From Bacteroidales bacterium (GTDB lineage Bacteria; Bacteroidota; Bacteroidia; Bacteroidales; JAADJA01), in assembly GCA_030596605.1 (NCBI GenBank), contig JAUVJI010000002.1:2904-66903 (forward strand): 64,000 nucleotides of DNA. Direction: 5' to 3'. The notes beneath the pieces were generated by a model. That model ran no database searches. It was not told the origin of the DNA and worked only from the letters and a program-made list of their open reading frames with translations. A program made the translations under genes and the position numbers. This document shows, piece by piece, positions 7,788 to 44,985 of this stretch; the first letter of the stretch is position 1; each line of letters opens with the position of its first letter.

Positions 7788-7798
7788 AATCTGTAATT

Positions 7799-11245: not shown

Positions 11246-11545
11246 AATCGGGATAATTCATCCGATGACTTCGAGTCATCGGATGAATCTCTACTTATTC
11301 GTCTGATCACTGTCCATGTGTATGCCTTGCACGCAGTGGTCTGACGAATAATAAAAGGAAAAAACACAGGTTATGAATTAATTGTAAGTTCATTGAAATT
11401 TAAAATATACATAAGAAAGGAGGCAATAAGTTTATTGATCTTTGTAAACCAAAATTTACGAACTTGCTATTTTAGAAAGGAACTTTAATCTTCGCAAATA
11501 TTATCCAAATGAGGGCCCCGTTTTAGCTTACGGGGTTCTTTTTTA
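11246..11545 (+). repeat. Conserved structured non-coding element, copy 1 (two long hairpins, conserved blocks, GCAAATA-TATCCAAA motif, intrinsic terminator); candidate ncRNA or structured 3-prime UTR
   Basis: Hairpin 1 at 11257-11287 is TTCATCCGATGACT-TCG-AGTCATCGGATGAA, a perfect 14-bp stem. Hairpin 2 at 11297-11349 is ATTCGTCTGATCACTG...CAGTGGTCTGACGAAT. It has a homolog at 17096-17391. Confidence 0.6.
11513..11545 (+). terminator. Intrinsic terminator-like hairpin plus T-run
   Basis: GGGCCCCGTTTTAGCTTACGGGGTTCTTTTTT. Confidence 0.6.
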
Positions 11546-11608
11546 TATAGTTAGTGATTCCGAAACATAGATTTATCTCAGAAACTTCTACTTTGTTATA
11601 GGTTATCT

Positions 11609-11650
11609 TCGCAAATAATAATCCAACCCCGGCAAATAATAATTCATGTC
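11609..11650 (+). repeat. GCAAATAATAATCCAA-CCCCGG-CAAATAATAATTC motif pair upstream of the 11749 gene
   Basis: CTTCGCAAATAATAATCCAACCCCGGCAAATAATAATTCATG belongs to the same family as 1963-2016, 11493-11510, 17341-17358 and 18551-18567. Confidence 0.45.
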
Positions 11651-11748
11651 ATATTTATCAGATTTGTATATTTAGTTTTACAATATTAAATCCGGTATGA
11701 ATTTAACTTCTGTTAATAACAATAAATATGTAACTAAAACTTATCACA

Positions 11749-14529: not shown

Positions 14530-14581
14530 TTTGAGTAAATTTGTAATAAAAATAATAAATATACCTTAAAAATAAATCATC

Positions 14582-17095
14582 ATGAAAAATCTCATTCTAA
14601 TTAACTTTTTAGTTTTGTTTCTAATTACTTTTTTAACAGGCCAGGTTATTTCTGATTTTGAAATTGAAGATGATACTGAAAATTGGCATTCCGAAGGTGA
14701 TGGCAATTATGGTTGGGAATCAGGCACAGGAAACCCTGGTGGATGTTTTCGTGTAAATGATTATGCCACAGGAGATATGAACCGTGCTTATGCGCCGGTG
14801 AAATTTCTTGGTGACTGGTCATCCGCCACAACAAGTGATTCTATTTCCGCTGACATTTTTCTACATGACATGGGCGGAGGGTATGTAAATCCTAATTTTG
14901 TATTCAGGATTGTTGGCCCGGGAGGTTCTGCTATTGCTATATATGATCCTATACCTACGCCACCACATGATACCTGGATCACCTATTCTGTAAACCTAAT
15001 TGAAAATGATTGGTTTGTTGAATACGGCACATGGGCTGATATTCTTCAACATGTTAGCACATTTATCGTTACAATGGAATATATCAGTGGTGATGAATAT
15101 AATTTGTTAGACAATGTAACTCTTTCTTTTACGCCCATTGCAGTTCCCATTACTCCTGTTCTGTGTTCAGATTTTGAAAGCGGCTTATTTGAAGGATGGT
15201 CGGTAAATGATGCCGGGAGTGCTTCAATAGCAAGCACCGGTGGTAACCCTGGGAAATATCTTAAAATTAATGATGGCACCGGGAATTCAATAGCTGTGCC
15301 TTCATCTATCTATCACGGTGACTGGTCATTACTTGACGGCCATAATGCAGAGATCCATATAGACTATCTGATTACAGATATTAACGGGCCAACCTATTTA
15401 CATGATTTTTTTGTGAAAATTGCAGGTCCGGGGGGCGAAGCAACATATCCCATTGATAACAATATTGAGTTGGCTTTTAACAAATGGCATTCATTTGGTA
15501 TTCCAATTGAGCAAGCAGGCTGGATAATTTTAAGTGGCGATTGGAATTCGTTGATGGATTTTGTGGACGACATCCAAATTGTTGCCGAATTTATCTCTGG
15601 GGATGAAACCGTCGGGATTGATAATTTTTGCATTTCCAATTTACCGCCTTCAACGGAATTTATGGCTGAAAAGATATTTGTCTATTTGGGTGAAACAGTG
15701 CAGTTTTTCGATCAAACAACATCAGCACCGCAAACCTGGAATTGGGATTTTGGCGATTCCGGATCGAGCACAGAAGTTAATCCTTCTCATCAGTACCTTG
15801 CCCCGGGATTATATACAGTATCTTTAACTACAACCAACTACTTCGGTAATAGCACTGAAACAAAAACAGGATACATTGAAGTATATCCGGTTGATCAGTG
15901 TTTAAAGTTTGAAGATGATTTTGACGATAATATTATTCATCAAGCCTGGTCTTTTAAAAATGGGACTTGGAACGAAACATCCGGATTGATGAGGCAATCT
16001 TCAAATCATTATGTATCTGGTAATTACTTGGAAGGCTGTTTTGCTATTACAGGCAGTTTATTGTGGAACGATTATATTGTTTCCTGTGATTTCCGGTCAA
16101 CTGACAATGATATAATTGGTTTTGTTTTTAACTACCAGGATGAACAAAACATGTATATGTTCAGATGGAGGTTGAATCCTTTATACAGATCACTGTTTAA
16201 ATATGAAAACGGAGTTGAAACAGAACTTGCAACTGATAATGTCGGATATATTGAAAACGACTGGTACCATGCTGACATATACTCTTTAGACGGTAATATC
16301 GTGCTTGCTATTAATGGGGTGGAAATTTTTAGTGTTTTTGATGATACATTTACAAATGGGAAAGTTGGGTTGTATTGCTTTGGTAACCAATCCAGTTATT
16401 ATGATAATTTCAAGGTGGAATGTCCGGGGACACCTGTTGAGCTTAAAGTATTTTTAGAAGGGCCTTTTACAGGGTCTGAAATGACCACCGGCTTAAATGA
16501 CCAGAATATTCTTGCATTAAACAATCCCTATCCTAACGCTCCCTGGAATCATACCGGAACAGAAGGAGTGCTTTCATTTTCCAATCCGGATGTAACTGAC
16601 TGGGTGCTGGTAGATTTCAGGGATACTACATCGGCAAGTGCGGCACTACCCGCCTCTTCTATTGGAACCAAAGCAGCGTTGTTATTAAAAAACGGTCAAG
16701 TTATTTCACCTTATGGAGGATTGCCATTGTATCTTAATGCCACCATTAATAATAATCTTTATATTGTTATTCAGCACAGGAACCATTTGGGAATCTTGTC
16801 AGCAAATCCGGTAACAGAAGCCGGCGGAATGTATTCGTATGACTTTACAAACGGATCAGGACAGGCTTATGGAACAAATGCACAGAAAAATCTCGGTGGA
16901 ATTTATGGAATGTATGCCGGAGATGGTGATGCCAATGGAACTATTGAAGTGTCCGATATAAACAACATCTGGGGTTCACAGGTTGGAAAGATAGGATACT
17001 GGTCTGGTGATTTTGATATGAACGGGCAAGTGATGAATCAGGATAAAAATGATGTGTGGTTTTTGAATATAAACGAACAAACACAGATACCATAA
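14582..17095 (+). CDS. Secreted protein: two ~170-aa N-terminal repeats, PKD domain, LamG/concanavalin-like (DUF1080-like) domain, C-terminal LEGPF/HRNHL module; no T9SS CTD
   Basis: Signal peptide MKNLILINFLVLFLITFLTGQ. PKD signature WNWDFGDSGSSTEVNPSHQYLAPGLYTVSLT. A LamG-like block reads FEDDFDD...GFVFNYQDEQNMYMFRW...GKVGLYCF. The C-terminal module spans 16436-17092 and ends ...NEQTQIP. Confidence 0.85.
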   Translation: MKNLILINFLVLFLITFLTGQVISDFEIEDDTENWHSEGDGNYGWESGTGNPGGCFRVNDYATGDMNRAYAPVKFLGDWSSATTSDSISADIFLHDMGGGYVNPNFVFRIVGPGGSAIAIYDPIPTPPHDTWITYSVNLIENDWFVEYGTWADILQHVSTFIVTMEYISGDEYNLLDNVTLSFTPIAVPITPVLCSDFESGLFEGWSVNDAGSASIASTGGNPGKYLKINDGTGNSIAVPSSIYHGDWSLLDGHNAEIHIDYLITDINGPTYLHDFFVKIAGPGGEATYPIDNNIELAFNKWHSFGIPIEQAGWIILSGDWNSLMDFVDDIQIVAEFISGDETVGIDNFCISNLPPSTEFMAEKIFVYLGETVQFFDQTTSAPQTWNWDFGDSGSSTEVNPSHQYLAPGLYTVSLTTTNYFGNSTETKTGYIEVYPVDQCLKFEDDFDDNIIHQAWSFKNGTWNETSGLMRQSSNHYVSGNYLEGCFAITGSLLWNDYIVSCDFRSTDNDIIGFVFNYQDEQNMYMFRWRLNPLYRSLFKYENGVETELATDNVGYIENDWYHADIYSLDGNIVLAINGVEIFSVFDDTFTNGKVGLYCFGNQSSYYDNFKVECPGTPVELKVFLEGPFTGSEMTTGLNDQNILALNNPYPNAPWNHTGTEGVLSFSNPDVTDWVLVDFRDTTSASAALPASSIGTKAALLLKNGQVISPYGGLPLYLNATINNNLYIVIQHRNHLGILSANPVTEAGGMYSYDFTNGSGQAYGTNAQKNLGGIYGMYAGDGDANGTIEVSDINNIWGSQVGKIGYWSGDFDMNGQVMNQDKNDVWFLNINEQTQIP
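16436..17092 (+). other. LEGPF/HRNHL module copy C
   Basis: VELKVFLEGPF...DWVLVDFRDTTSAS...HRNHLGILS...GDGDANGTIEVSD...GDFDMNGQVMNQDKND...QIP. Confidence 0.8.
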
Positions 17096-17575: not shown

Positions 17576-18448
17576 ATGGGAAAAGCAAATAATATTTCCG
17601 GAAAGCTGGCTTCTTTACGCGAAAGATATTTTAAATATGCTTTTAAAAAAGCTTCATTATTAAATATTTTAAGCGAAGCAGAGGTATCAGAGCAGGTATA
17701 CAATTCCAATGCAATTGAAAACAGTACCTTAACATTTGATGAAACTCAAAAGATTTTACAGCAGATAGATTTGGACAGATTTATTTCGGAAAGAGAGTTG
17801 TTCGAAACTAAAAACCTGTCTCGTGTAATTGGCTATCTAAATTCCAAAGCAAAAGAAAAGGAACTGGACATAGAAATGACCTTATTGCTCCATAAAATGC
17901 TGATGTCGAACATCAATGATAAAATTGCCGGAAGATTCAGGAACGACACAGAATGGGTCAGGGTGGGCAATCATATTGCTGTTGATCCAAAACAGGTTTA
18001 TGACAGTATGGAAGAAATGCTTATAAAATATTATTCAACAGCCCATCTCAGTATTGTGAAAAGAATTGTCTTTTTACATTTAACATTTGAGCACATTCAT
18101 CCCTTTGTGGATGGCAATGGCCGAATTGGCAGGGTGATAAACAATTACTTTTTGATCCGTGAGGGTTATGTTCCCATTAACATTAAGTTTATCGACCGGG
18201 CGTTGTATTATGATGCATTCAGCGAATTTGACAGTAGTGGTAATACTACTATTATGGAAGATATCGTTGGAAAAGCCCTTACTAACAGTTACCATAAAAG
18301 GCTGGCTTACCTTGAAGAAAAACAAATTATAAGTTTAATTGAATATGCCAGATTAAAAAACACCTCTCACTCCAACATTATAAATAAAGCCAAAAGGCAA
18401 AGCATTGAGGCATTTACTGAAAAAGGCGTATGGAAAATTGGGGCTTAG
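17576..18448 (+). CDS. Fic family protein (AMPylase-type), with N-terminal inhibitory-helix-like motif
   Basis: Fic active-site motif HPFVDGNGRIGR fits HxFx(D/E)GNGRxxR. N-terminal SNAIEN fits the (S/T)xxxE(G/N) auto-inhibition motif. The C-terminal ~45 aa may form a small HTH-like tail. Confidence 0.85.
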   Translation: MGKANNISGKLASLRERYFKYAFKKASLLNILSEAEVSEQVYNSNAIENSTLTFDETQKILQQIDLDRFISERELFETKNLSRVIGYLNSKAKEKELDIEMTLLLHKMLMSNINDKIAGRFRNDTEWVRVGNHIAVDPKQVYDSMEEMLIKYYSTAHLSIVKRIVFLHLTFEHIHPFVDGNGRIGRVINNYFLIREGYVPINIKFIDRALYYDAFSEFDSSGNTTIMEDIVGKALTNSYHKRLAYLEEKQIISLIEYARLKNTSHSNIINKAKRQSIEAFTEKGVWKIGA

Positions 18449-18631: not shown

Positions 18632-20509
18632 CTATTCCACAATCATCTTCTTTGTAATAGCAGCCTCACCAGCTTTTACTGTGTAGAAATAAATACCAGG
18701 TGTGAGTTTGGTTCCATCTATGATTATTTTATTCATCCCGGGCTGAGCAATTCCTGCATCAGCAGAATATACCATTTGTCCCATCATGTTTACAACTTCC
18801 AGTGTTAAAGGAGTTGTATGCCTCACATTCACTTTTACCGTTGAATTTTCTGTGAATGGATTAGGGTAGTTTTGCAATACATCATAATCAAATATAGCTG
18901 TATTGTCTTCATCCCCTACCCATACTTCAAGAATATCAGCTTTCATAAACCTGATGAAGTTTTCACCGTACGGATCTTCGTCACCCCTTACAGCAAGGCC
19001 GGGCTCAGTATCCGTTTGGTAAATCAGGTAATAATAGTCATCTGAGGTTGAAGCTATACTTGGGAATACACACTCATCAAAAATATGAATAAGATCGGAT
19101 GTCAAATCTGTAAAAGGGCCCCAGAAATCTCCGTACCCTGAAAAACGGCTCCACATATGACGGTAACTTTGTGTACCATTGTCATATGTTTCAGTTACAG
19201 AGGTGAAAACAATATAAATATTGTCATCTTCAGTAATTGTAATTTGAGGCATGCTTGAAAATCCGAGATAATATGTTCCCCAGTCATCCAAAACATCAAT
19301 GGTTCCATTGTTGTTAATATCCTGGGTCCAGCCAATCAAGCTGTAATCTTCCACAAGTTCAGAGTAAGAGCAATTATCATACAGAGGACAAAGGGCATCC
19401 ATGTCATTTGAAAAAGTGGGCCTGTTCTCATTCCAGTATCCTATACCACCTACACCCGGAAACCAAAAGGAGCCTGTGCCATCAGAATAAGACCTGTTAA
19501 TACCAAAAACAACATGTATCATACCCTCGCTGTCGTAAGCAAGGTGATGTGAGCCATCCACGCAATAGAATGTATCGGTGGGTGTTGGCTGGGCAGGATT
19601 GAACATCGGATATGGGTTCTCCCAGATCACTGTTTTCTCCCAGGTATCTCCCCCATCATCTGATTTCATCAAAATAAAATCGATCCATGAGTCACCCACC
19701 AAAAATGCAATGTTATCATCATCTGTTGCAGCCCATTCATACATATCGGCGCTAAAACCAACATAGTCGGCAGAAGAGAGCCCATCCAAAATAGCATGCT
19801 CGGGATCCCAGGTTGTTCCGCCATCTGTTGATCTTGAATATAACACTGCTCCATCCAGACCTTGATATATCGGTCCGCCATTGGCCTCCGGCCATGTAAT
19901 ACATAATGTTTGGATTACATTATTGTTAATCCCAGAAGTGGTTGACCTGTTCCAAGATATGGGTGTTGCGGCAGGTCCTTCAAAAACATCTTCTGACCAG
20001 GTTCCTGTTCCTTTTTCCTCTCTGATGAGATAAATAAGCTCTCCGGCACCAAAATCATGAGAAACGACAAGTTCACCATTTTCTCCATAAGGAGCATAAG
20101 AAGGCCATCCGGTTCTTAAGCTTTCAATTCTTTCCGTTGGCCAAGGTCCCCAGGTATTTCCGTCATAATAATTGTAACCTGTACCCCTGTCACCGGCAAA
20201 ATTTGGAAAATCCAAACCAAAAGTCCAGACACCGGCCATGGTTCCATCGGGATAAACATGAAAACGGTTCTGGTTACCAGTGTTGGATTGCAGGTCGTAA
20301 AAAGTATTACCGATGATCTCTTCCTCAGGTGTAAAATCTGCCTTATAAGAAGGAATAATCGGTGATTTGCTAAAATCTGACGGTGATTTAGAATGACGGG
20401 CTTTTCTAATGGAATAATCCCTTAGTTCCTTAGAAACAGTTGCCCGGTTTTGTGAAAATCCTGAGATGGCTATTCCCAGAATTAAAACGAAAAGTAATAG
20501 ATTTTTCAT
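18632..20509 (-). CDS. Asp-box (BNR) beta-propeller protein with T9SS CTD, paralog P1
   Basis: Signal peptide MKNLLLFVLILGIAISGFSQ. Asp-boxes YSRSTDGGTTW and MKSDDGGDTW. Conserved EF-hand-like loop DINNNGTIDVLDD. CTD YPNPFTENSTV...GIYFYTVKAGEAAITKKMIVE. Confidence 0.85.
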   Translation of the reverse strand: MKNLLLFVLILGIAISGFSQNRATVSKELRDYSIRKARHSKSPSDFSKSPIIPSYKADFTPEEEIIGNTFYDLQSNTGNQNRFHVYPDGTMAGVWTFGLDFPNFAGDRGTGYNYYDGNTWGPWPTERIESLRTGWPSYAPYGENGELVVSHDFGAGELIYLIREEKGTGTWSEDVFEGPAATPISWNRSTTSGINNNVIQTLCITWPEANGGPIYQGLDGAVLYSRSTDGGTTWDPEHAILDGLSSADYVGFSADMYEWAATDDDNIAFLVGDSWIDFILMKSDDGGDTWEKTVIWENPYPMFNPAQPTPTDTFYCVDGSHHLAYDSEGMIHVVFGINRSYSDGTGSFWFPGVGGIGYWNENRPTFSNDMDALCPLYDNCSYSELVEDYSLIGWTQDINNNGTIDVLDDWGTYYLGFSSMPQITITEDDNIYIVFTSVTETYDNGTQSYRHMWSRFSGYGDFWGPFTDLTSDLIHIFDECVFPSIASTSDDYYYLIYQTDTEPGLAVRGDEDPYGENFIRFMKADILEVWVGDEDNTAIFDYDVLQNYPNPFTENSTVKVNVRHTTPLTLEVVNMMGQMVYSADAGIAQPGMNKIIIDGTKLTPGIYFYTVKAGEAAITKKMIVE

Positions 20510-20610
20510 AGTACTGATTTTTAATTATTTAATTATTAATTTATAAATCATTAAATGTTTGTTGCAAGTTTAACGATAAAGATAGCCAAAATTATAAAAA
20601 ATCCTGAAAT

Positions 20611-20646
20611 AAACCAGCTAACGGTAAAATCAAATCAGTTAACGGT
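20611..20646 (-). promoter_or_regulatory. Candidate LytTR-type operator upstream of P1 (two 15-mers, 21-bp register)
   Basis: Gene-strand sequence: ACCGTTAACTGATTT (exact, 20632-20646), then ACCGTTAGCTGGTTT (20611-20625). Lies 102-137 nt upstream of the start codon. Confidence 0.6.
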
Positions 20647-20720
20647 AAAAAAGTCCACCTTCGCTAAAGCTTCGGAGGACAAGTAAAGTTAAAAGTATAA
20701 ATGTTAATTGGAAATTCAGC

Positions 20721-22583
20721 TTATTCCACTATCATCTTCCTGGTAACAGCAGCCTCACCCGCCTTCACCGTATAGAAATACAATCCCGGATTAAGTCCTT
20801 CCACATCAATTGTAATATTGTGAACTCCTGCCTGAAGATACCCTTCTTTAATTCCCAAAACTTTCTGGCCGGTAAGGTTGATAATTTCAAGGGAAATATT
20901 ACAAGATTCTGTTAATTCGATTTGCACTAAAGTTTCGTCACTAAACGGATTTGGAACATTCTGGCTTACTTTAAGATTTTTAACAGGTTCCATATTTTTT
21001 GCAATTCCTGTAATTACATCCACTGCCATAAAACTGATAAAATTTTCAAAAAATGGATCATTATCTCCTCTCACTGCCATTCCAGGTTCGGGATCATATT
21101 GAAATGTTAAATAATAGTTGAGCCAGCCATCGGAATAGGTTGCCAGGGATGGGAATACATTTTCATGCATACAATGACATAAATCGTTGGTTAAATGCAA
21201 AAATGAACTCCAGGTATAACCATCTAATGAATAACGGCCCCAAAGGTGCCGGTAGTTTTGTATACCATTATCATATGTTTCCGTAACGGATGAGTATACC
21301 ACAAATATCCTGTTCATATCATCAACAACAATCTGTGGCATACTTGAGAAACCAAGATAATAAGTACCCCAGTCATCCAGAAATTCAAGTTGTCCGTTTC
21401 CGTTAATATCCTGTGTCCAACCTATTAAACTATAATCTTCCTCAAGCTCAGAATCAGGATGGCCATAAGGACTTAAAGCATTCAAATTATTTGAGAAAGA
21501 AGGCCTGTTTTCATTCCAGTATCCTATTCCCCCAACGGCCGGAAACCAGTAAGTTCCTGCTCCGTCGCAAACAGTCCTGTTAATACCAAACACAACGTGA
21601 ACAATTCCTTCATCATTGAAATCCAAACTATGGGCGCCATCAGCACAATAGAAAGTATCAGTCGGGAACATATTATTGAAATTCCACATTGGATAGGGGT
21701 GCTCCCAAATTATTGTCTTTTCCCAGGTATTCCCGCTATCTGTTGATTTTAATAATAACAAATCAATCCATGGTGAGCCAATTAAAATGCCGACAATGTC
21801 ACCTTCGGCTTTAATGTCATAAGTATCCCCATCAAATCCAACATAATGGGTGTTATCAATCTCAGGGAAAACATAATTCTCAGGATTCCATGTACTTCCT
21901 CCATCCATAGACCTTGAATACAAAATGGCCGATATTTGCCCTTGATAGGGATTATATGGTTTTGTAACTGCCAACAAATGGATAACTGAATTATTCACAC
22001 CTCCGGTTGCCATCCTTGGAAATATAATATCCTCAAACAATTGGGGGCCAGTAAAATTCCACTCTTCCCAATCGCCCACACCCTTGTTGATCCTTTTATT
22101 AAACAAAAGACCATCAATATCAGCCCCGGACAGGTGAGATACAATAAGTTCTCCGTTTTCACCCAAGGGAGCATATGAAGCCCAGCCCGAACGCTGGCTT
22201 TCAATCCTCTCTGTTGGCCAGAGCTGCCATGCAGTTCCATCAAAATAGTTGTATCCGGTTCCCCTGTCATCCATAAAATTAGGATAATCATAACCCATTG
22301 TCCACACAGTTCCTATTGTGCCATCATCAAAAACATGAATCCTTTGTTGTGTGCTGTAATTGGTCTGCAGGTCGTAATATGTTGTTCCAATATCTTCTTC
22401 AAAATAACAGCTGCTTTTATAGGGAGCTTGTATATTGTGATTTTCCCGGGTTTGGTTATAAGATTCATCTACCTTAACTCCATAATCCTGCAATTCTTTT
22501 GAGATTTTTACCCTTTGCTGGGAAAAGCCGATTGTACAGATTAGTATTAATGTGAAAGTGATAACAATACTTTTCATGATCAA
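20721..22583 (-). CDS. Asp-box (BNR) beta-propeller protein with T9SS CTD, paralog P2
   Basis: Collinear with P1 and P3-P6. Asp-boxes YSRSMDGGSTW and LKSTDSGNTW. CTD VPNPFSDETLV...GLYFYTVKAGEAAVTRKMIVE. The start could be the second ATG at 22577. Confidence 0.85.
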   Translation of the reverse strand: MIMKSIVITFTLILICTIGFSQQRVKISKELQDYGVKVDESYNQTRENHNIQAPYKSSCYFEEDIGTTYYDLQTNYSTQQRIHVFDDGTIGTVWTMGYDYPNFMDDRGTGYNYFDGTAWQLWPTERIESQRSGWASYAPLGENGELIVSHLSGADIDGLLFNKRINKGVGDWEEWNFTGPQLFEDIIFPRMATGGVNNSVIHLLAVTKPYNPYQGQISAILYSRSMDGGSTWNPENYVFPEIDNTHYVGFDGDTYDIKAEGDIVGILIGSPWIDLLLLKSTDSGNTWEKTIIWEHPYPMWNFNNMFPTDTFYCADGAHSLDFNDEGIVHVVFGINRTVCDGAGTYWFPAVGGIGYWNENRPSFSNNLNALSPYGHPDSELEEDYSLIGWTQDINGNGQLEFLDDWGTYYLGFSSMPQIVVDDMNRIFVVYSSVTETYDNGIQNYRHLWGRYSLDGYTWSSFLHLTNDLCHCMHENVFPSLATYSDGWLNYYLTFQYDPEPGMAVRGDNDPFFENFISFMAVDVITGIAKNMEPVKNLKVSQNVPNPFSDETLVQIELTESCNISLEIINLTGQKVLGIKEGYLQAGVHNITIDVEGLNPGLYFYTVKAGEAAVTRKMIVE

Positions 22584-22620
22584 TTTTTTAGGAAATGTTT
22601 ATAAAAATAAAAACAGGTTT

Positions 22621-22628
22621 CAAATATA
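22621..22628 (-). promoter_or_regulatory. Bacteroidota -7 box-like element (TATATTTG) upstream of P2
   Basis: The gene-strand sequence TATATTTGAAACCTGTTTTTATTTTTATAAA is shared almost verbatim with the P3 upstream region. It matches the TAnnTTTG consensus and lies ~40 nt upstream of the ATG. Confidence 0.45.
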
Positions 22629-22721
22629 ATCATTTGATATGTTATATGCAAGAATGATATTCTAAGATATTGGACTGTAGGCGTATGAAGTTAAAATTTA
22701 ACTTTATACCCAATTGCAAAT

Positions 22722-24581
22722 CTATTCCACTATCATCTTTTTTGTAATCTTTTCTTCACCGGCATTCACCGTATAGAAATACAATCCCGGATTAATTCCA
22801 ACTGCATTAATTGAAATATTGTGAACACCCGGCTGAAGATTACCTTTGCTTATATCCAAAATTTTCTGGCCGGTCAGGTTGGTAACTTCAAGTGATACAT
22901 TGCAGGCATCAAACAGATCAATTTGTACCAATGTTTCCTTACTAAACGGATTTGGAACATTCTGGCTTACTTTGAGATTTTTAACAGGTTTTTGATTTTC
23001 AGGTATTCCCACATAAAAATCAGTATTCATAAAAGTTACGAAGTTTTCACCATAAGGATCTTCATCACCTCGAACTGCCATACCTGGTTCATTATCCCTT
23101 TGAAAGGTCAAATAATAATTTACTGTATTATCAGAATAATTTGCAAGTGAAGGAAATACGCATTCGTCAAATATGTGTGCCGGATGACCAGTTAAATCAT
23201 CAAATGAACCCCAATAATCTGGATCATTTGCCCGCCTCGACCAAATATGCCGATAATTTTGAACACCATTATCAAAAGTTTCTGTTACAGATGAATAAAC
23301 CACAAAAATTTCGTTGTAAGAATCATTACAATAAATCTGTGGCATACTTGAAAAGCCAAGATAATATGTTCCCCAATCGTCAAGTATATCAAGCTGTCCG
23401 TTTTGATTGATATCCTGTGTCCAACCAATAAGGCTGTAGTCCTCTTCCAGATCTGAGTCAGGATGTCCATAAGGGTTTAATGCATTCAGGTTGTTTGAAA
23501 ATGATGGCCTGTTTTCATTCCAGTATCCTATTCCACCAACGGCCGGAAACCAAAAAGTTCCTGCACCATCACAATAAGTCCTGTTTATACCAAACACAAC
23601 GTGGGCAATTCCGTAGTCATCAAAATCGAGACTATGAGCACCATCGACACAATAGAAAGTATCAGTCGGGTACATATTGCTGTAATTCCACATTGGATAG
23701 GGGTGCTCCCAAATGATCTTTTTTACCCAGGTACTTCCACCATCTGTTGATTTTAGTAATAGCAAGTCAATCCATTTTGAGCCAATCAGGATGCCTACAA
23801 TGTCCCCTTCGGCTTTAATATCATAAGTATCCCCCATAAAACCATTATAAAAATTGCTGTTTATCTCAGGAATCACATAATTTTCAGGATTCCAATTAAC
23901 TCCCCCATCAATAGACCTTGAATATAGAATAGCATAATCTTGTAACTGATATGGCCAGATTGCAGCTGATACAGCCAACAAATGGATCACACTGTGATTA
24001 ACACCTCCAGTTGCCATTCTTGGCCATATAATCTCTTCATAATTAGGAGGGCCTGAAAAATTCCATTCCTCCCAATCCCCAATACCTTTGTTTTCTCGTT
24101 TTAGTAGAGTTAGTCCATCTTCCTCAGCACCTGCCAAATGAGAAACAATGATCTCCCCGTTTTCACCAAAAGGTGCATATTCAGGCCAGCCAGAACGATC
24201 TGACTCTAATCGTTCTGATGGAAATGGGGCCCAGTTTTCTCCATCAAAATAATTGTATCCAGACCCTCGGTCATCCGAAAAGTTAGGGTAATCATAACCC
24301 AAAGTCCAGACAACTCCTATTGTCCCATCATCAAATACATGGATCCGTTTTTGAATGCTGGCCATAGTTTGCAGGTCATAATAGGTCATACCAATATCAA
24401 AAAAACAGGTGCTTTTATAGGGTGGTTTTGATTGGTAGGTTTCTAAGGATTGATAATAGGAGTCATCTATCCTAACTCCATAATCTTGCAATTCTTTAGA
24501 AATTATTACCCTCTCTTGAGAGAAGGCAGTTAGGCAGGTAAATGCTAATAAACATGCGATAGCAATACTTTTCATGATCAA
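22722..24581 (-). CDS. Asp-box (BNR) beta-propeller protein with T9SS CTD, paralog P3
   Basis: Closest paralog of P2; both begin MIMKSI.. and share upstream DNA. Asp-boxes YSRSIDGGVNW and LKSTDGGSTW. CTD VPNPFSKETLV...GLYFYTVNAGEEKITKKMIVE. Confidence 0.85.
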   Translation of the reverse strand: MIMKSIAIACLLAFTCLTAFSQERVIISKELQDYGVRIDDSYYQSLETYQSKPPYKSTCFFDIGMTYYDLQTMASIQKRIHVFDDGTIGVVWTLGYDYPNFSDDRGSGYNYFDGENWAPFPSERLESDRSGWPEYAPFGENGEIIVSHLAGAEEDGLTLLKRENKGIGDWEEWNFSGPPNYEEIIWPRMATGGVNHSVIHLLAVSAAIWPYQLQDYAILYSRSIDGGVNWNPENYVIPEINSNFYNGFMGDTYDIKAEGDIVGILIGSKWIDLLLLKSTDGGSTWVKKIIWEHPYPMWNYSNMYPTDTFYCVDGAHSLDFDDYGIAHVVFGINRTYCDGAGTFWFPAVGGIGYWNENRPSFSNNLNALNPYGHPDSDLEEDYSLIGWTQDINQNGQLDILDDWGTYYLGFSSMPQIYCNDSYNEIFVVYSSVTETFDNGVQNYRHIWSRRANDPDYWGSFDDLTGHPAHIFDECVFPSLANYSDNTVNYYLTFQRDNEPGMAVRGDEDPYGENFVTFMNTDFYVGIPENQKPVKNLKVSQNVPNPFSKETLVQIDLFDACNVSLEVTNLTGQKILDISKGNLQPGVHNISINAVGINPGLYFYTVNAGEEKITKKMIVE

Positions 24582-24617
24582 TTTATTAGGTAATTTTTAT
24601 AAAAATAAAACAGGTTT

Positions 24618-24625
24618 CAAATATA
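24618..24625 (-). promoter_or_regulatory. Bacteroidota -7 box-like element (TATATTTG) upstream of P3
   Basis: Gene-strand TATATTTGAAACCTGTTTTATTTTTATAAA lies ~40 nt upstream of the ATG at 24581 and is a duplicate of the P2 upstream block. Confidence 0.45.
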
Positions 24626-24719
24626 GTCATTTGATATTGTAAATGCAAGAGTTAATCAGTTTGTGGTAAGTTACCCCCTCCCTTTCTCCCCCCCTGGAGG
24701 GGGAGGGTTGGGGTGGGGG

Positions 24720-26591
24720 TTATTCAACCATCATCTTCTTTGTAACAGCTGCTTCCCCCGCATTCACCGTGTAAAAATACAATCCCGGATTAATTCCAAC
24801 TGCATCAATTGTGATATAATGAACGCCCGGCTGAAGATAACCTATATTTATTTCTATAACTTTCTGGCCTGTAAGGTTAGTAACCTCCAAAAAAACATTG
24901 CAATCATCGAAAAGCTCAATTTGTATCACTGTTTCAGAAGTAAACGGATTTGGAATATTCTGGCTTACTTTAAGGCTTTCATCTGGAGATTTATTTTCAA
25001 AAATTCCTACACCTTTATAAACTTTCATAAACCGAATAAAGTTTTCACCATATGGATCTTCATCACCTTTTATAGCCATTCCGGGTTCAGTATCAGCTTG
25101 ATAAACAAGATAAAACCAATCATCAGAAAAAGATGCGACAGAAGGAAAAACACATTCATCAAAAATATGGATCAGGTCGGAGGTCAGGTCATAAAAAGGA
25201 CCCCAGAAATCTCCATTAAATGACCAACGAGCCCATAGATGACGATAACTTTGTGTACCGTTGTCATAGGTTTCTGTAACTGATGAATAAACAACATAAA
25301 TGTTGTTGAGTTCATCAATAATGATCTGTGGCATACTTGATAATCCCAGGTAATATTTTGCAATATCATCCCATAGGATATCAATCGTACCATTTTGATT
25401 AATATCCTGGGTCCAGCCAATCAAACTGTAATCTTCAACAAGTTCTGAGTAAATACAATCTGCAAAAGGGCATAATGCATTCAAATCATTCGAAAAAGTT
25501 GGCCTGGTTTCATTCCAGTATCCAATCCCTCCAACTCCGGAAAACCAGAATGTTCCTTCACCATCACTATGTGCCCTGTTGATCCCGAATACAATGTGAA
25601 CCATACCATCCTGATCGAAAGCAAGGCCATGAGCACCGTCAGCACAATAGAAAGTGTCTGTCGGATACATATTATTGGGATCCCACATTGGATAAGGATG
25701 TTCCCAGATAATGGTTTGTGTCCATGTGTCACCTCCATCAGTAGATTTTAAAAGTCCGAGATCCTGCCAAAATTCACCATAAAGAATAGCAACATTGTTT
25801 CCATCTGCCTGAACTTCATAAGTGTCGCCGGAGAAAGCCAGATAATTAGCGCTGTTTAATTCATCAAAGAGTACATCTTGCATATCCCAGGTATCACCAC
25901 CATCAGGTGACCTGGAATATAACAATGCACCGTCAATTCCCTGATAAAGTGAGCCACCATTTGCAATTGGAAGGGTTAAAGCAATTTGATGAACAATACT
26001 GTGATTAATCCCTCCTGTTGTCATCCTGGGCCAAACCATTTCATTGCCTACAGGTGTCAGGTAATCTATTAGGGTCCAATCGCCAGTTCCCTTTTCTGAC
26101 CTTCTGGCATATACCAAACCATCAATGGCAGCACCTGAATAGTGTGCAACATTGATCTCACCATTTTCACCCCAGGCTGCGTATGCCGGCCAACCGGTAC
26201 GGTCCTCCTCTAATATTCCCGATGGATATGATCCCCAATCGCTGCCATCAAAATAGTTATAACCGGTACCCCTGTCATCGAAATTCGGAAAATCAAATCC
26301 CATAGTCCATACCCCACCAATAGTACCATCATCATATACAAAGATCCTGTTCTGCATACTTGCATTACTTTGCAGGTCAAAATAGGTGCTACCAATAATA
26401 TCTTCATCAACATAAACAAAATCTTGTGGTGAGGATGGTAAAGCTTCGTGACTGAAATTCATTGTTTCAAGCACTGGTGGAACTTTTTTTTCCGCAAAAT
26501 TCCGATGGTATTCTGAGATTGTCACCCTTTGCTGTGCAAATCCTGCCATAACTAATGCCAGGACTAAGCTTAAAAGTAAAAGTCTTCTCAT
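24720..26591 (-). CDS. Asp-box (BNR) beta-propeller protein with T9SS CTD, paralog P4
   Basis: The ORF is open to 26717, but the signal peptide MRRLLLLSLVLALVMAGFAQQ starts at the ATG at 26591 and aligns with the P5 start. Asp-boxes YSRSPDGGDTW and LKSTDGGDTW. The CTD is of the P2/P3 type. Confidence 0.8.
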   Translation of the reverse strand: MRRLLLLSLVLALVMAGFAQQRVTISEYHRNFAEKKVPPVLETMNFSHEALPSSPQDFVYVDEDIIGSTYFDLQSNASMQNRIFVYDDGTIGGVWTMGFDFPNFDDRGTGYNYFDGSDWGSYPSGILEEDRTGWPAYAAWGENGEINVAHYSGAAIDGLVYARRSEKGTGDWTLIDYLTPVGNEMVWPRMTTGGINHSIVHQIALTLPIANGGSLYQGIDGALLYSRSPDGGDTWDMQDVLFDELNSANYLAFSGDTYEVQADGNNVAILYGEFWQDLGLLKSTDGGDTWTQTIIWEHPYPMWDPNNMYPTDTFYCADGAHGLAFDQDGMVHIVFGINRAHSDGEGTFWFSGVGGIGYWNETRPTFSNDLNALCPFADCIYSELVEDYSLIGWTQDINQNGTIDILWDDIAKYYLGLSSMPQIIIDELNNIYVVYSSVTETYDNGTQSYRHLWARWSFNGDFWGPFYDLTSDLIHIFDECVFPSVASFSDDWFYLVYQADTEPGMAIKGDEDPYGENFIRFMKVYKGVGIFENKSPDESLKVSQNIPNPFTSETVIQIELFDDCNVFLEVTNLTGQKVIEINIGYLQPGVHYITIDAVGINPGLYFYTVNAGEAAVTKKMMVE

Positions 26592-26670
26592 GATCGTTTT
26601 TTTTAAGTTAGTAATATTTTTTTTAAGTGAATTCTCAAATATAAAAAGATTATATATTAAAGTCAAGGAT

Positions 26671-26706
26671 AAATCAGTTAACGGTGGGGAAAAGTAAGAA
26701 TTCGGT
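26671..26706 (-). promoter_or_regulatory. Candidate LytTR-type operator upstream of P4
   Basis: Gene-strand sequence: a degenerate ACCGAATTCTTACTT (26692-26706), then an exact ACCGTTAACTGATTT (26671-26685) 21 bp away. The proximal copy ends 27 nt before a TATATTTG -7-box-like element. Confidence 0.55.
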
Positions 26707-26772
26707 ATTTTTTTCAATTCTTAAAATTCTACTCTTCTGCTCTTTCGGATTTAAGGGAAGGCTAAGGTGTGG

Positions 26773-26878
26773 GATAATCCGAAAGCCTGTAACAGGGGAT
26801 TTTCCCGTAGGACCCGAGGGGATTCCTACGGGAGATGGCTATGCCAAGATTCCCCATTTAAATCCCGTCCGGATTATC
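26773..26878. repeat. ~105-nt multi-stem palindromic element between P5 and P4
   Basis: Outer stem GATAATCCG (26773-26781) / CGGATTATC (26870-26878). Middle stem GGGGATTT / AAATCCCG. Inner perfect 10-bp hairpin TCCCGTAGGA (26803-26812) / TCCTACGGGA (26824-26833). Confidence 0.55.
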
Positions 26879-26933
26879 ATCTTCACTGCCCATAGCATAA
26901 ATCCGGACAAGCTGTATAGCAGAAAAAATTTAC

Positions 26934-26966
26934 ATAAAAAAAAGACCGGTCAAATTGACCGGCCTC
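26934..26966 (-). terminator. Intrinsic terminator of P5
   Basis: The minus strand reads GGCCGGTCAATTTGACCGGTC followed by a T-run, about 30 nt after the P5 stop. Confidence 0.65.
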
Positions 26967-26991
26967 TTTTAGTATATAGTTTCGTAAAATA

Positions 26992-28875
26992 TTATTCTAC
27001 GATCATCTTCTTGGTAACAGAAGTTTCACCGGCTTTTACTGTATAGAAATAAACGCCTGATGTTAGTTTTGTACCATCAATGATTATTTTGTTCATTCCC
27101 GGTTGTGCAACTCCTGCATCAACTGTCTGAACGATCTGTCCCATCATGTTCACAACTTCCAGTGATAAATTGGTAGTAGTACGAACATTTACCTGTACAG
27201 TTGAAGTACCGTTGAATGGATTAGGATAGTTTTGCATTACATCATAATCGTGTATTGCAGTGTTATCTTCAATACCTACCCATAATTCCATCTTGTCAAT
27301 TTTCATATACCTGATGTCGTTATTACCAAAAGGATCTTCATCACCCCTTACAGCCATTCCCGGCTCAGTATCGGTTTGGTAAACCAGGTAGAGATTGTCA
27401 TCAGTTGTGGATGCCACAGACGGGAAAACACACTCGTCGAAAATGTGGATCAGGTCGGACGTCAGATCAACAAAAGGACCCCAGAAATCGCCGTATCCTG
27501 AATAACGTCCCCACAAGTGACGATAACTTTGTGTACCGTTGTCATAAGTTTCAGTAACGGATGAAAATACCATATAAATATTGTTCACATCATCAATAAT
27601 GATTTGTGGCATACTTGAAAATCCTAAGTAATAAAGGCCCCAGTCATCAAGGACATCAATAGTTCCGTTATTATTTATATCCTGTGTCCATCCGATCAAA
27701 CTGTAATCGTCAACAAGCTCTGAATAAACACAATCAGAATAAGGACATAAAGCATTCATATCATTAGAGAAAGTAGGCCTGTTTTCGTTCCAGTAACCAA
27801 TTCCACCCACTCCGGGGAACCAGAAGCCACCTGCCCCATCACTATGGGCCCTGTTTATACCGAACACAACGTGTACCATACCGCTTTGGTCAAAAGCAAG
27901 GCCATGAGCGCCGTCAGAACAATAGAAGGTGTCTGTTGGATACATGGCATTGGGATCCCACATTGGATATGGGCACTCCCAGATAATAGTTTGTGACCAT
28001 GTGTCACCGCCATCAGTTGATTTTAAAAGGCCGAGATCAGTCCATGATTCACCATAAAGGATAGCAACGTTTTCGCCCTGTGCCTGAACTTCATAAGTGT
28101 CGCCTGCGAAGTGGAGGTAATTACTGCTGTTCACTTCATCAATAAGTATATCCTGCATATTCCAGGTGTCACCACCATCCGCTGACCTGGAATACAATAA
28201 TGCGCCATCAATTCCCTGGTAAATTGAACCGCCATTAGCTACAGGCCGGGTTAATGCAATTTGATGAACAACACTGTGATTAACACCACCGGTTGTCATC
28301 CTTGGCCAAACCATTTCGTTGCCTACCGGAGTTAAGTAATCAATAAATGTCCAGTCGCCTGAGCCTTTATCTGCCCTTCTGGAATAAGCCAGTCCATCAT
28401 AAGCAGCTCCGGAATAGTGTGCAAGGTTGATTTCACCATTTTCTCCCCATGCTGAATAAGCAGGCCATCCGGTACGGTCGGCTTCTAATTTTTCTGTTGG
28501 AATAGGCCCCCAGTCATTTCCGTCAAAATAGTTGTAGCCTGTACCACGGTCAGTTGCAAAGTTTGGAAAATCATAACCAATCGTCCAAACAGCGCCAACG
28601 GTACCATCATCATACACAAAAATCCTGTTTTGCATACTTGAATTGCTTTGCAAGTCATAAAAGGTAGTGCCAATAATATCTTCTTCAGGTGTAAGTAAAT
28701 CCTGAGAGGAATAAGGTAGCGCCTCGTGACTGAAATTATTAGTTTCAATTACGGGCTGAATTTTTTTAACTGCGAAATTTCGCAAGTCATTTGAAACTGT
28801 AGCCCTTTGCTGGGCAAATCCTGCCATAACAAATGCCAGGACAAAACTTAAAAGTAAAAGTCTTTTCATGATCAT
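26992..28875 (-). CDS. Asp-box (BNR) beta-propeller protein with T9SS CTD, paralog P5
   Basis: Signal peptide MIMKRLLLLSFVLAFVMAGFAQQ. Asp-boxes YSRSADGGDTW and LKSTDGGDTW. CTD YPNPFNGTSTV...GVYFYTVKAGETSVTKKMIVE, of the P1 type. Confidence 0.85.
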   Translation of the reverse strand: MIMKRLLLLSFVLAFVMAGFAQQRATVSNDLRNFAVKKIQPVIETNNFSHEALPYSSQDLLTPEEDIIGTTFYDLQSNSSMQNRIFVYDDGTVGAVWTIGYDFPNFATDRGTGYNYFDGNDWGPIPTEKLEADRTGWPAYSAWGENGEINLAHYSGAAYDGLAYSRRADKGSGDWTFIDYLTPVGNEMVWPRMTTGGVNHSVVHQIALTRPVANGGSIYQGIDGALLYSRSADGGDTWNMQDILIDEVNSSNYLHFAGDTYEVQAQGENVAILYGESWTDLGLLKSTDGGDTWSQTIIWECPYPMWDPNAMYPTDTFYCSDGAHGLAFDQSGMVHVVFGINRAHSDGAGGFWFPGVGGIGYWNENRPTFSNDMNALCPYSDCVYSELVDDYSLIGWTQDINNNGTIDVLDDWGLYYLGFSSMPQIIIDDVNNIYMVFSSVTETYDNGTQSYRHLWGRYSGYGDFWGPFVDLTSDLIHIFDECVFPSVASTTDDNLYLVYQTDTEPGMAVRGDEDPFGNNDIRYMKIDKMELWVGIEDNTAIHDYDVMQNYPNPFNGTSTVQVNVRTTTNLSLEVVNMMGQIVQTVDAGVAQPGMNKIIIDGTKLTSGVYFYTVKAGETSVTKKMIVE

Positions 28876-44949: not shown

Positions 44950-44985
44950 ACCGTTAACTGATTTCATGCAACCGCTAACTTACTT
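44950..44985 (+). promoter_or_regulatory. Candidate LytTR-type operator upstream of P6
   Basis: ACCGTTAACTGATTT (44950-44964, exact) and ACCGCTAACTTACTT (44971-44985), 21-bp register. Lies 155-190 nt upstream of the start at 45140. Confidence 0.6.

Follow-up and report, generated by a model that had tools for sequence, protein, structure and literature searches.

The 64,000-nt stretch of DNA analyzed here (the window) is derived from a Bacteroidales bacterium (GenBank assembly GCA_030596605.1, contig JAUVJI010000002.1, positions 2,904 to 66,903 of the forward strand). It encodes six paralogous proteins of about 620 aa (P1 to P6), in which a β-propeller is followed by a C-terminal sorting domain (CTD) for a type IX secretion system (T9SS), and several of their genes are preceded by a direct repeat with a period of 21 bp. 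The genes of P5 to P1 are five open reading frames (ORFs) arranged head-to-tail on the minus strand (18632–28875), and the gene of P6 is located apart from them on the plus strand (45140–46993). An earlier note on this DNA, made from the sequence alone, had described this arrangement, and the ORF calls agree with it except for corrections of a few bases (Table 1).

The start context GATCATGA is common to P2, P3, P4, and P5; translation of P2, P3, and P5 therefore probably begins at the ATG codon within it. A hairpin or terminator is located 3' of every gene, and the clear intrinsic terminators are those of P5 and P1. These structures support the assignment of each paralog gene to a separate transcription unit.

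Domain organization and fold of the paralogs

The T9SS type A sorting domain model TIGR04183 matched all six proteins with 34.5–47 bits (cut-off 23), and the match ended at the last or second-last residue. PF18962 of Pfam scored 27.3–46.6 bits in the paralogs against a cut-off of 27. A signal peptide was recognized at the N-terminus by eye only; it consists of a K/R-rich n-region, a hydrophobic core, and a GF(S/A)-Q site. The Gln residue following the predicted cleavage site is invariant among 60 homologs, which fits the Q-rule of Bacteroidota. By these sequence-level criteria, the proteins would be classified as T9SS type A cargo. They resemble known cargo of this type, such as gingipains and secreted glycoside hydrolases, in having a putative Sec signal peptide and TIGR04183/PF18962 at the extreme C-terminus. 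In contrast to such cargo, the passenger lies outside the described families, and the CTDs of neighboring paralogs have been exchanged by recombination, as described below. None of the genes for the T9SS machinery (PorK/L/M/N, Sov, and PorU/V) was found within the 64-kb window. At least three other CTD-bearing genes are present in it (8–883, 890–1882, and 2571–7787) and provide indirect support for a T9SS in the host.

Each copy possesses two Asp-boxes. Both of them follow the strict S.D.G.TW pattern in P1, P2, P4, and P5, while in P3 and P6 one of the two is relaxed. A D.N.NG..[DE].L(W)DD segment is present in all six paralogs; its D-x-[ND]-x-[ND]-G-x-x-D loop core is widely conserved among the family, but the trailing LDD is not. 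The shared architecture proposed in the earlier note (signal peptide, a pair of clear Asp-boxes, a DINxNG-type segment, and a CTD) was found in all six proteins, with the limitations that the two boxes are both strict in only four of them and that the signal peptide was seen by eye.

For the N-terminal region of approximately 540 aa, no Pfam or NCBIfam model exceeded its threshold in the six paralogs, and only BNR and BNR_2 appeared below the threshold. No Pfam model reached the threshold for the propeller in 58 homologs either. A full-length AlphaFold model had a predicted local distance difference test score (pLDDT) of 83.7, and a model of residues 60–532 of P5 had a pLDDT of 90.8 and a predicted template-modeling score of 0.92. 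The modeled domain is all-β, with about 27 strands in seven sheets, and this strand count indicates seven four-stranded blades. A long loop in the model (P5 residues 364–419) bears the calcium-loop-like motif. A Foldseek search of the PDB with this domain gave seven-bladed structures as the top matches, namely GH145 (5mum, 5mvh, 5muk, and 4irt), PL42 (7esl, 7esk, and 7esn), and the Photorhabdus PLL/PHL lectins, with target template-modeling (TM) scores (TMt) of 0.56–0.61. Pseudaminidase and six-bladed GH33 sialidases ranked next, and sortilin-type propellers matched poorly. The sorting-domain matches, the confident model, and the many BNR propellers retrieved by Foldseek at a probability of 1.0 bear out the identification of the proteins as Asp-box propeller cargo of the T9SS. 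The earlier note had also proposed profile and structure searches for placing the propeller; these put it nearest to the seven-bladed GH145, PL42, and lectin structures, at the level of fold only and within no characterized family.

GH145 (BT3686-type), PL42 (FoRham1), and the PL24/PL25 ulvan lyases are similar to the paralogs in being single seven-bladed Asp-box propellers that are extracellular and occur in Bacteroidota or fungi. Catalysis depends on a His residue in the posterior pocket of GH145 and on Arg/His/His/Tyr in the anterior pocket of PL42 (PMC8377490), and conserved His, Arg, and Tyr residues can also be recognized in the aligned sequences of the present family. However, there is no sequence-level kinship with GH145 or PL42 (9–13% identity, TM scores of ~0.5–0.6), and the propeller is larger than theirs by approximately 80–100 aa and has a 55-residue loop carrying the D-x-N-x-N-G-x-x-D motif. 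BNR_4 (PF15892) was unmatched in the six paralogs and in the 58 homologs at E ≤ 1. Sequence searches of the PDB at E ≤ 10, with profiles of 6 and 58 sequences, retrieved no GH145 or PL42 chain and gave only local Asp-box matches to GH74 and sialidases. Membership in GH145 or PL42 was rejected at the sequence level. Because these two families belong to BNR_4 of Pfam (PMC8377490), which the propeller does not match, the domain is a new family inside the BNR/sialidase-like propeller superfamily and outside any characterized glycoside hydrolase or lyase family.

Three other propeller families were also considered and rejected. At the center of the GH33 propeller are an Arg triad, a Tyr/Glu nucleophile pair, and an Asp acid/base. 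GH33 sialidases and the Pseudomonas pseudaminidase resemble the paralogs in their overall propeller fold (Foldseek probability 1.0) and in the location of Asp-boxes at the turn linking strands 3 and 4. However, they have six blades as opposed to seven in our model, their TM scores are lower than those of the seven-bladed families, and the FRIP/RIP motif is missing here. The absence of a sialidase FRIP motif, already suspected in the earlier note, was confirmed for all six copies ([FYW]R[IVL]P in 0/6). BNR_2 scored 13–15 bits against a cut-off of 31.4, and its best value among 58 members (E = 5e-05) was still below the threshold. GH74 xyloglucanases consist of two tandem seven-bladed propellers of about 750 aa, and the present proteins have a single propeller of ~470 aa with only local Asp-box matches to GH74 (E = 1e-4 to 1e-3 over ~80 residues). 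Sortilin/VPS10 proteins form a ten-bladed propeller; the TM scores to SorCS2 and sortilin were 0.14–0.24, and the Sortilin-Vps10 model of Pfam was unmatched in the six paralogs.

The family is large. Homology searches gave 1,187 matches, none of which has a name beyond "hypothetical" or "T9SS type A sorting domain-containing protein". Grouped at 50% identity, the family comprises 1,745 clusters, of which 933 match at E ≤ 1e-30. The hosts are solely uncultured Bacteroidales, Lentimicrobiaceae, and a few other metagenome-assembled genomes (MAGs). Some homologs contain two to four copies of the domain per polypeptide, and in others the domain is fused to fn3, CarboxypepD_reg, cohesin/dockerin, PKD, CARDB, BACON, MAM, or Ig-like modules. 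A set of 129 divergent domains (29–58% identical to P5) was used for the analysis of conservation. Outside the Asp-boxes, twenty polar residues are at least 90% conserved, including three His, two Arg, three Tyr, and nine acidic residues. Conserved polar residues in P5 are D74, R84, D90, Y114, E131, E148, H153, R167, H204, D259, Y261, D321, H335, Y361, E481, and D502. Together with the conserved loop core, this set suggests a conserved pocket and perhaps a Ca2+ site. Our literature search found nothing relevant on the propeller family. A large part of the interface at which Bacteroidota meet their environment consists of T9SS cargo, and most cargo families of uncultured lineages are without an assigned function. 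The present family is large, strongly conserved, multi-copy in most genomes, and without a Pfam or NCBIfam profile; it is possibly a new CAZy family.

Judging only from the nearest folds and the conserved Arg, His, Tyr, Asp, and Glu residues, glycan recognition or cleavage is our best guess for the propeller, with about an even chance of being correct. Several observations weigh against this assignment. The fold matches are weak, with root-mean-square deviations of 7–10 Å in addition to the low TM scores and identities given above, and non-enzymatic lectins are among them; these matches do not separate an enzyme from a binder. The modules fused to the propeller in longer homologs are of the scaffold or adhesion type and not catalytic partners. 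The sole hint of a polysaccharide utilization locus (PUL) is a SusC/SusD pair upstream of P6, which recurs only in the related locus L070 among about ten loci with the same position next to CorA; PUL membership was therefore rejected as a general feature.

Divergence and mosaicism of the paralogs

The six proteins are 50–75% identical overall, and the closest pairs are P2/P3 (73%) and P4/P5 (75%). The pairing of P2 with P3 and of P4 with P5, which had been proposed earlier for the whole proteins, holds for the propeller only. In the CTD, P4 groups with P2 and P3 (71–75% identity) and P1 with P5 (79%). The first half of the propeller is only 54% identical in amino acids between P1 and P5, as opposed to the 79% in their CTDs. 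At the nucleotide level, the identity between P4 and P5 is 75–89% up to alignment column ~535 and then falls to 47–56% in the CTD, while that between P4 and P3 is 61–71% before the boundary and rises to 74–88% in the CTD. The mosaic breakpoint is located at alignment columns 530–545. The synonymous divergence (dS) of the CTD is 0.57 for P3–P4 and 0.90 for P1–P5, which is below that of the matching propellers (at least 1.16 in the N-terminal domain). Because the identity switches at the boundary and the CTDs have lower dS than the propellers, the sorting domains have been swapped between paralogs by recombination at the linker after the duplications. The exchange between adjacent paralogs shows that the passenger and its sorting domain are modules that can evolve separately.

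The closest pairs have dS values of 1.16 (P4–P5) and 1.53 (P2–P3), and most pairs are saturated. The ratio of nonsynonymous to synonymous divergence (dN/dS), an analysis that the earlier note had recommended, is 0.10–0.15 across the paralogs. As dS is near saturation and dN/dS is low, the duplications are old and every copy is under purifying selection, which agrees with the view of an old, maintained expansion.

These data bear on the alternative that the propellers act at the cell surface without enzymatic activity, for instance as adhesins, lectins, or coat proteins, and that the arrays and the shuffling of CTDs provide surface diversity, for example against phages or grazers or for different attachment targets. 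The seven-bladed Photorhabdus lectins among the best fold matches would fit this explanation, as would the cohesin, dockerin, fn3, PKD, CARDB, BACON, and Ig-like modules of scaffold or adhesion proteins in the long homologs and the failure of the propeller to match any CAZy-linked Pfam model. The paralogs also diverge most in the N-terminal half of the propeller (51–56% identity). However, the low dN/dS indicates no diversifying selection at the level of the whole domain, and no invertible promoters or recombinases adjoin the array. The retention of many Arg, His, Tyr, and acidic residues across members that are only 29–58% identical is more typical of a single conserved pocket. We regard this alternative as possible, although doubtful, and retain glycan recognition as the preferred assignment.

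Promoters, the 21-bp-period repeat, and a candidate regulator

All six upstream regions, partly read by eye, contain a cTTG element (-33) followed after ~20 nt by a TAnnTTTG box (-7), although the box of P6 is non-canonical. These elements correspond to the -33/-7 promoter consensus of Bacteroidota. The only strict TAnnTTTG sequence upstream of P6 is 90 nt from the repeat. The earlier note had divided the upstream regions into two promoter classes on the basis of the repeats and of a nearly identical block shared by P2 and P3. The block is present, but it consists of the -7 box (TATATTTG) and the 5' leader, and its beginning (TATATTTGA) recurs in P4, equally far from the ATG codon. Because the block is thus a -7 box, common to P4, together with a leader, the six genes have one promoter type and not two. 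The real difference between them is the number of upstream operator repeats.

The 15-mer ACCGTTAACTGATTT has five exact copies in the 64 kb, at 20632, 26671, 28984, and 29005 on the minus strand and at 44950 on the plus strand, which is far beyond chance. All five are upstream of P1, P4, P5, or P6, as the earlier note had reported, and degenerate partners are located 21 bp away at 20611 and 44971. The degenerate remnant reported for P3 is also present, 2 nt from its earlier coordinates, and P2 has no operator repeat upstream. In P3 to P6, the distance from the start of the proximal repeat to the candidate -7 box is 41–42 nt; there are 3 nt between the end of this repeat and the cTTG, and the 9-nt core ends 9–10 nt before the TTG. 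The proximal repeat of P1 is one helical turn nearer to the -7 box.

In 1.25 Mb of sequence from related loci, a search for the repeat that allowed up to one mismatch gave 28 sites; 27 of them are directly upstream of family genes and in the sense orientation, and shuffled 15-mers gave 0–1 sites in the same sequences. Genomes with proteins just 46–55% identical to P5 also have exact copies, often in 21-bp tandems. With a conservation far above that of neutral intergenic DNA, the repeat has the properties expected of a conserved operator. The consensus over 62 tandem sites is a 14-nt sequence, ACCGTTAACTGATT, which is present two or sometimes three times with a strict 21-bp period; a TTG is often found at +19 (21 of these sites), and often a -7-like box at +41/42. 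Three repeats in a row were observed in loci L078 (4972–5040), L082 (~9180–9250), and L115 (~216–290), and such triplets suggest cooperative multimeric binding.

The genes downstream of the operator are not restricted to the propeller family. At 47 tandem sites on metagenome contigs, a first tblastn screen identified a family propeller downstream at only six, and ORF inspection suggested a few more; family genes remain a small minority at these sites. Elsewhere, the downstream genes encode a C10 peptidase, TonB-like proteins, a cluster of Asp-box-rich proteins, and other proteins with a CTD, one of which is a BNR/sortilin-type propeller. The genes that follow the site in seven loci encode, in this order, a small membrane protein, a ~1,240-aa CarboxypepD_reg/Plug/TonB-dependent-receptor-like protein, and a ~1,400-aa protein.

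Within the array, the copies differ in their operators. In the order P5-P4-P3-P2-P1, the counts are 2-1-0-0-2 in the window, and they are 2-1-0-1 and 2-0-0-0 in the close relatives L001 and L006. Because this pattern recurs in close relatives, the heterogeneity itself is conserved. None of six copies resembling P2 or P3 in other genomes has the operator. The regulatory divergence suggested by the earlier note therefore exists as a difference in upstream operators and not as two classes of promoter; subfunctionalization, in which some paralogs would respond to the signal while others are out of the regulon, is plausible.

A candidate regulator was identified in locus L116, where a kinase gene (eight Reg_prop repeats, Y_Y_Y, and His_kinase PF06580) and a regulator gene (Response_reg and LytTR) are located upstream of the operator and an operon of the small membrane protein and an outer-membrane protein (OMP) downstream. 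Homologs of the regulator are encoded upstream of the operator in all five loci with sequence on that side (L116, L106, L103, L099, and L108). Four further contigs fetched via the regulator alone have the same gene order, and in each of them the only operator-like sites in 16.75 kb are those that separate the regulator gene from the small gene. Thus, in 9/9 regulator loci, the operator sites lie between the regulator and the small downstream gene. In L126, both repeats carry the same variant (ACCGAAAACTGATT). L125 has two exact repeats, and its ENA assembly record (ERZ25039514) is also that of L001, which is most closely related to the array in the window and has exact operators at its family genes. 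The regulator orthogroup comprises hundreds of 249-aa sequences at 64–70% identity.

The gene cluster around this pair is strictly conserved (L116 552–13398; also in L099, L100, L103, L106, L108, L124–L127, and many Bacteroidota MAGs), in the order of Reg_prop/Y_Y_Y kinase, LytTR regulator, tandem operator, ~150-aa membrane protein, ~1,240-aa receptor-like protein, and ~1,400-aa protein. Pfam gave no match for the ~150-aa and ~1,400-aa proteins. This cluster is apparently the operator's primary target. In L018 (10379–12541, Tobar13.5m-G8), a kinase and a LytTR protein more distantly related to the L116 pair (40% and 48% identity) are encoded directly upstream of a family paralog, and the promoter of that paralog has only a degenerate repeat, ACCGAACCCGAATGTTGTTCCTAACTGAAC.

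LytTR-binding sites are composed of two direct repeats of 9–11 nt with a spacer of 11–13 nt, just upstream of the -35 element (PMC4847170, PMC6193735, and PMC4227749). The present repeats agree with this description in their 21-bp period, both in the window and at the 62 sites, in their position by the -33 element, and in their linkage to a regulator gene. As in the sites of AgrA, YpdB, and HdrR/BrsR, a 9-nt core and a 12-nt spacer make up the period and the repeats abut the equivalent of the -35 element (PMC6193735, PMC4847170, and PMC4227749); the candidate regulator also has the receiver and LytTR domains, and the kinase the LytS-type PF06580 domain, of such systems. In contrast to these systems, the conserved repeat is longer (14 nt) and near-invariant across many genomes, the kinase has a periplasmic Reg_prop/Y_Y_Y sensor like that of hybrid two-component systems, and the predicted targets are T9SS cargo and outer-membrane proteins instead of quorum-sensing or bacteriocin genes. 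From the matching site architecture and the genomic linkage, we infer that the repeat is bound by the candidate regulator, which would thereby occupy a class II-like position and activate transcription. No relevant literature was found on the motif, on the kinase/LytTR system, or on LytTR control of T9SS cargo.

Taking these results together, we consider it rather probable that the paralogs are secreted seven-bladed propellers, likely glycan-recognizing, that are partly under a LytTR-operator regulon. The Sec signal peptide would be cleaved before the invariant Gln during export. The mature protein would then consist of a single ~470-aa seven-bladed BNR/Asp-box propeller, a short variable linker, and a type A CTD, and the CTD, as predicted from the domain, would direct it through the T9SS to the cell surface or the medium. 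There, the propeller would most likely act as a glycan-recognizing module, either an enzyme or a lectin. Ancient duplications gave rise to the six copies, which have been kept by purifying selection and have exchanged CTDs at the linker. Each gene would be a transcription unit of its own with the same core promoter, and the direct repeat abuts the -33 element with two units in P5, P1, and P6 and with one in P4. With the decay of the repeat in P3 and its absence in P2, some paralogs would remain responsive to the signal and others would have left the regulon. The Reg_prop/Y_Y_Y/His_kinase sensor and the LytTR regulator would activate a regulon of secreted and outer-membrane proteins.

The regulatory part of this account has several points against it. 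The operator is found at only 22 of 118 family copies in other genomes; most family members are therefore regulated differently. The nine regulator loci represent one conserved synteny block and not nine independent events. Autoregulation of the kinase-regulator operon was rejected, since no operator is located upstream of the kinase gene in L116 or L099. Moreover, no homolog of the L116 regulator is encoded in the window, and a different, stand-alone LytTR protein is (2064–2561).

This last point is in favor of another explanation, namely that the 14/15-mer is bound by a different factor, either the stand-alone LytTR protein or an unrelated regulator, or that it is an upstream promoter element. 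LytTR regulators are also numerous in Bacteroidota (more than 5,000 proteins retrieved at E ≤ 1e-30). The gene at 2064–2561, on the plus strand directly upstream of 2571–7787, encodes a 165-aa protein with a short N-terminal region and a LytTR domain but no receiver, and its product may be a separate one-component or LytTR regulatory system (LRS)-like regulator. Its role as the regulator of the operator is not supported, as it has no similarity to the L116 regulator and no homolog near any of the related loci. The strict 21-bp direct repeats abutting the -33 element match LytTR sites (PMC6193735 and PMC4847170), and in 9/9 loci of one kinase-regulator pair operator sites separate the regulator gene from the small downstream gene. 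In addition, the repeat is upstream of ordinary -33/-7 elements, which argues against a sigma-factor promoter itself. This explanation is therefore unlikely, and we return to the LytTR pair as the favored regulator.

The paralogs belong to an abundant new family whose kind, secreted BNR propellers encoded by arrays of paralogs, is already known, and a newly recognized putative regulatory circuit accompanies it. To our knowledge, the PorXY-SigP cascade of Porphyromonas gingivalis, which regulates genes for T9SS components (PMC4800418), is essentially the sole T9SS regulatory circuit described so far. A hypothesis for the control of secreted proteins in anaerobic sediment and digester Bacteroidales is provided by the near-invariant operator and the adjoining kinase-regulator pair, and co-regulated secretome genes could be predicted in metagenomes with the operator as a simple sequence tag. 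A more far-reaching reading, which we put forward tentatively and with a chance well short of even, is that the ACCGTTAACTGATT tandem is the operator of an undescribed, widely conserved Reg_prop/Y_Y_Y kinase-LytTR system acting as a secretome master switch and that the propellers, as a major and partly escaped branch of its regulon, are a new glycoside hydrolase or lyase family with a seven-bladed BNR fold. If so, the regulon of the switch would include T9SS cargo, a TonB-like protein, and the operon of the small protein, the OMP, and the ~1,400-aa protein, and its hosts would be environmental Bacteroidales.

Genomic setting

Among 77 related loci with 10-kb flanks, 44 carry two to six tandem copies. 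Same-strand tandem arrays are the normal state of the family, and an array of five genes is not unusual. Two chromosomal positions are conserved across species. The P5–P1 array is at the first, divergent from LptF/G and two glycosyltransferase genes (19 loci), and P6 is at the second, a single copy upstream of CorA (~10 loci). That the array is a collapsed or chimeric repeat is extremely improbable, even though the contig is metagenome-derived and the gene calls in the array of the closest relative, L001, are fragmented, because the copies are just 50–89% identical in nucleotides (dS at least 1.16, reading frames intact), the same gene order beside LptF/G is found in independent assemblies from other samples, and tandem arrays are so frequent; the earlier note had likewise regarded an artefact as unlikely.

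Table 1. Coordinates of the paralog genes, their regulatory elements, and neighboring genes in the window.
Feature	Position	Strand	Remarks
P5	26992..28875	-	First array gene, 627 aa; likely start ATG 28869; TIGR04183 47 bits
P5 parts	propeller ~27280-28698; T9SS type A CTD ~26995-27228	-	Preceded by signal peptide
P4	24720..26591	-	623 aa from ATG 26591; propeller nearest to P5, CTD nearest to P2/P3
P3	22722..24581	-	619 aa; likely start ATG 24575
P2	20721..22583	-	620 aa; likely start ATG 22577
P1	18632..20509	-	Last array gene, 625 aa; CTD and 3' third nearest to P5
P6	45140..46993	+	617 aa; apart from the array, upstream of CorA (second conserved position in the chromosome)
-7 box of P5	28950..28957	-	TAAATTTG; preceded by cTTG (-33)
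-7 box of P4	26636-26643	-	After cTTG (-33)
-7 box of P3	24618-24625	-	After cTTG (-33)
-7 box of P2	22621-22628	-	After cTTG (-33)
-7 box of P1	20587-20594	-	After cTTG (-33)
-7 box candidate of P6	~45012-19 (or 45061-68)	+	Non-canonical TAATTTG at ~45013, by eye
Putative tandem operator of P5	28984..29019	-	Two exact ACCGTTAACTGATTT, 21 bp apart
Putative operator of P4	26671..26685	-	Single exact repeat; degenerate copy ACCGAATTC... 21 bp further upstream
Putative operator remnant of P3	24653..24667	-	ACCACAAACTGATTA; degenerate, at homologous distance (42 nt) from -7 box
Putative tandem operator of P1	20611..20646	-	Distal repeat exact, proximal ACCGTTAGCTGGTTT
Putative tandem operator of P6	44950..44985	+	Distal repeat exact, proximal ACCGCTAACTTACTT
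Intrinsic terminator 3' of P5	26936..26970	-	GC-rich hairpin and U-tract, -24 kcal/mol
GC-rich hairpin directly 3' of P4 stop codon	24674..24719	-	-30 kcal/mol, without U-tract
Intrinsic terminator 3' of P1	18568..18607	-	-20.6 kcal/mol, with U-tract
Kelch/beta-helix/dockerin protein	2571-7787	+	1,738 aa, T9SS CTD
Cohesin/Ig protein	7799-11245	+	
Fib_succ_major protein	11749-14529	+	
PKD/3-keto-disaccharide-hydrolase-like protein	14582-17095	+	

From 2571 to 17095, the plus strand is occupied by a run of genes for very large secreted proteins whose modules are cellulosome-like. In other genomes, the propeller family itself has fusions to cohesin and dockerin modules. Together, these observations hint at a cohesin-dockerin assembly of surface complexes in the host lineage. 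A Fic/DOC gene (17576–18448, plus strand) is located between these genes and the end of the array, convergent with P1, and it is not found beside the array in related loci.

An Rfam scan of the window detected one tRNA and gave no match in the intergenic regions of the array. The hairpin trailing P4 is a poly-C/poly-G palindrome, CCCCCACCCCAACCCTCCCCCTCCAGGGGGGGAGAAAGGGAGGGGG, the composition of which is odd for an AT-rich genome; it is partly kept in L003. In the middle of the 400-nt spacer between P5 and P4, a stretch of ~160 nt (26760–26918) is absent from L003, the nearest relative, the flanks of which align at 88–95%. Its GC content is relatively high, short inverted repeats are present in it, and it has neither an Rfam match nor a second copy in the window; a small insertion specific to the lineage is a possible explanation.

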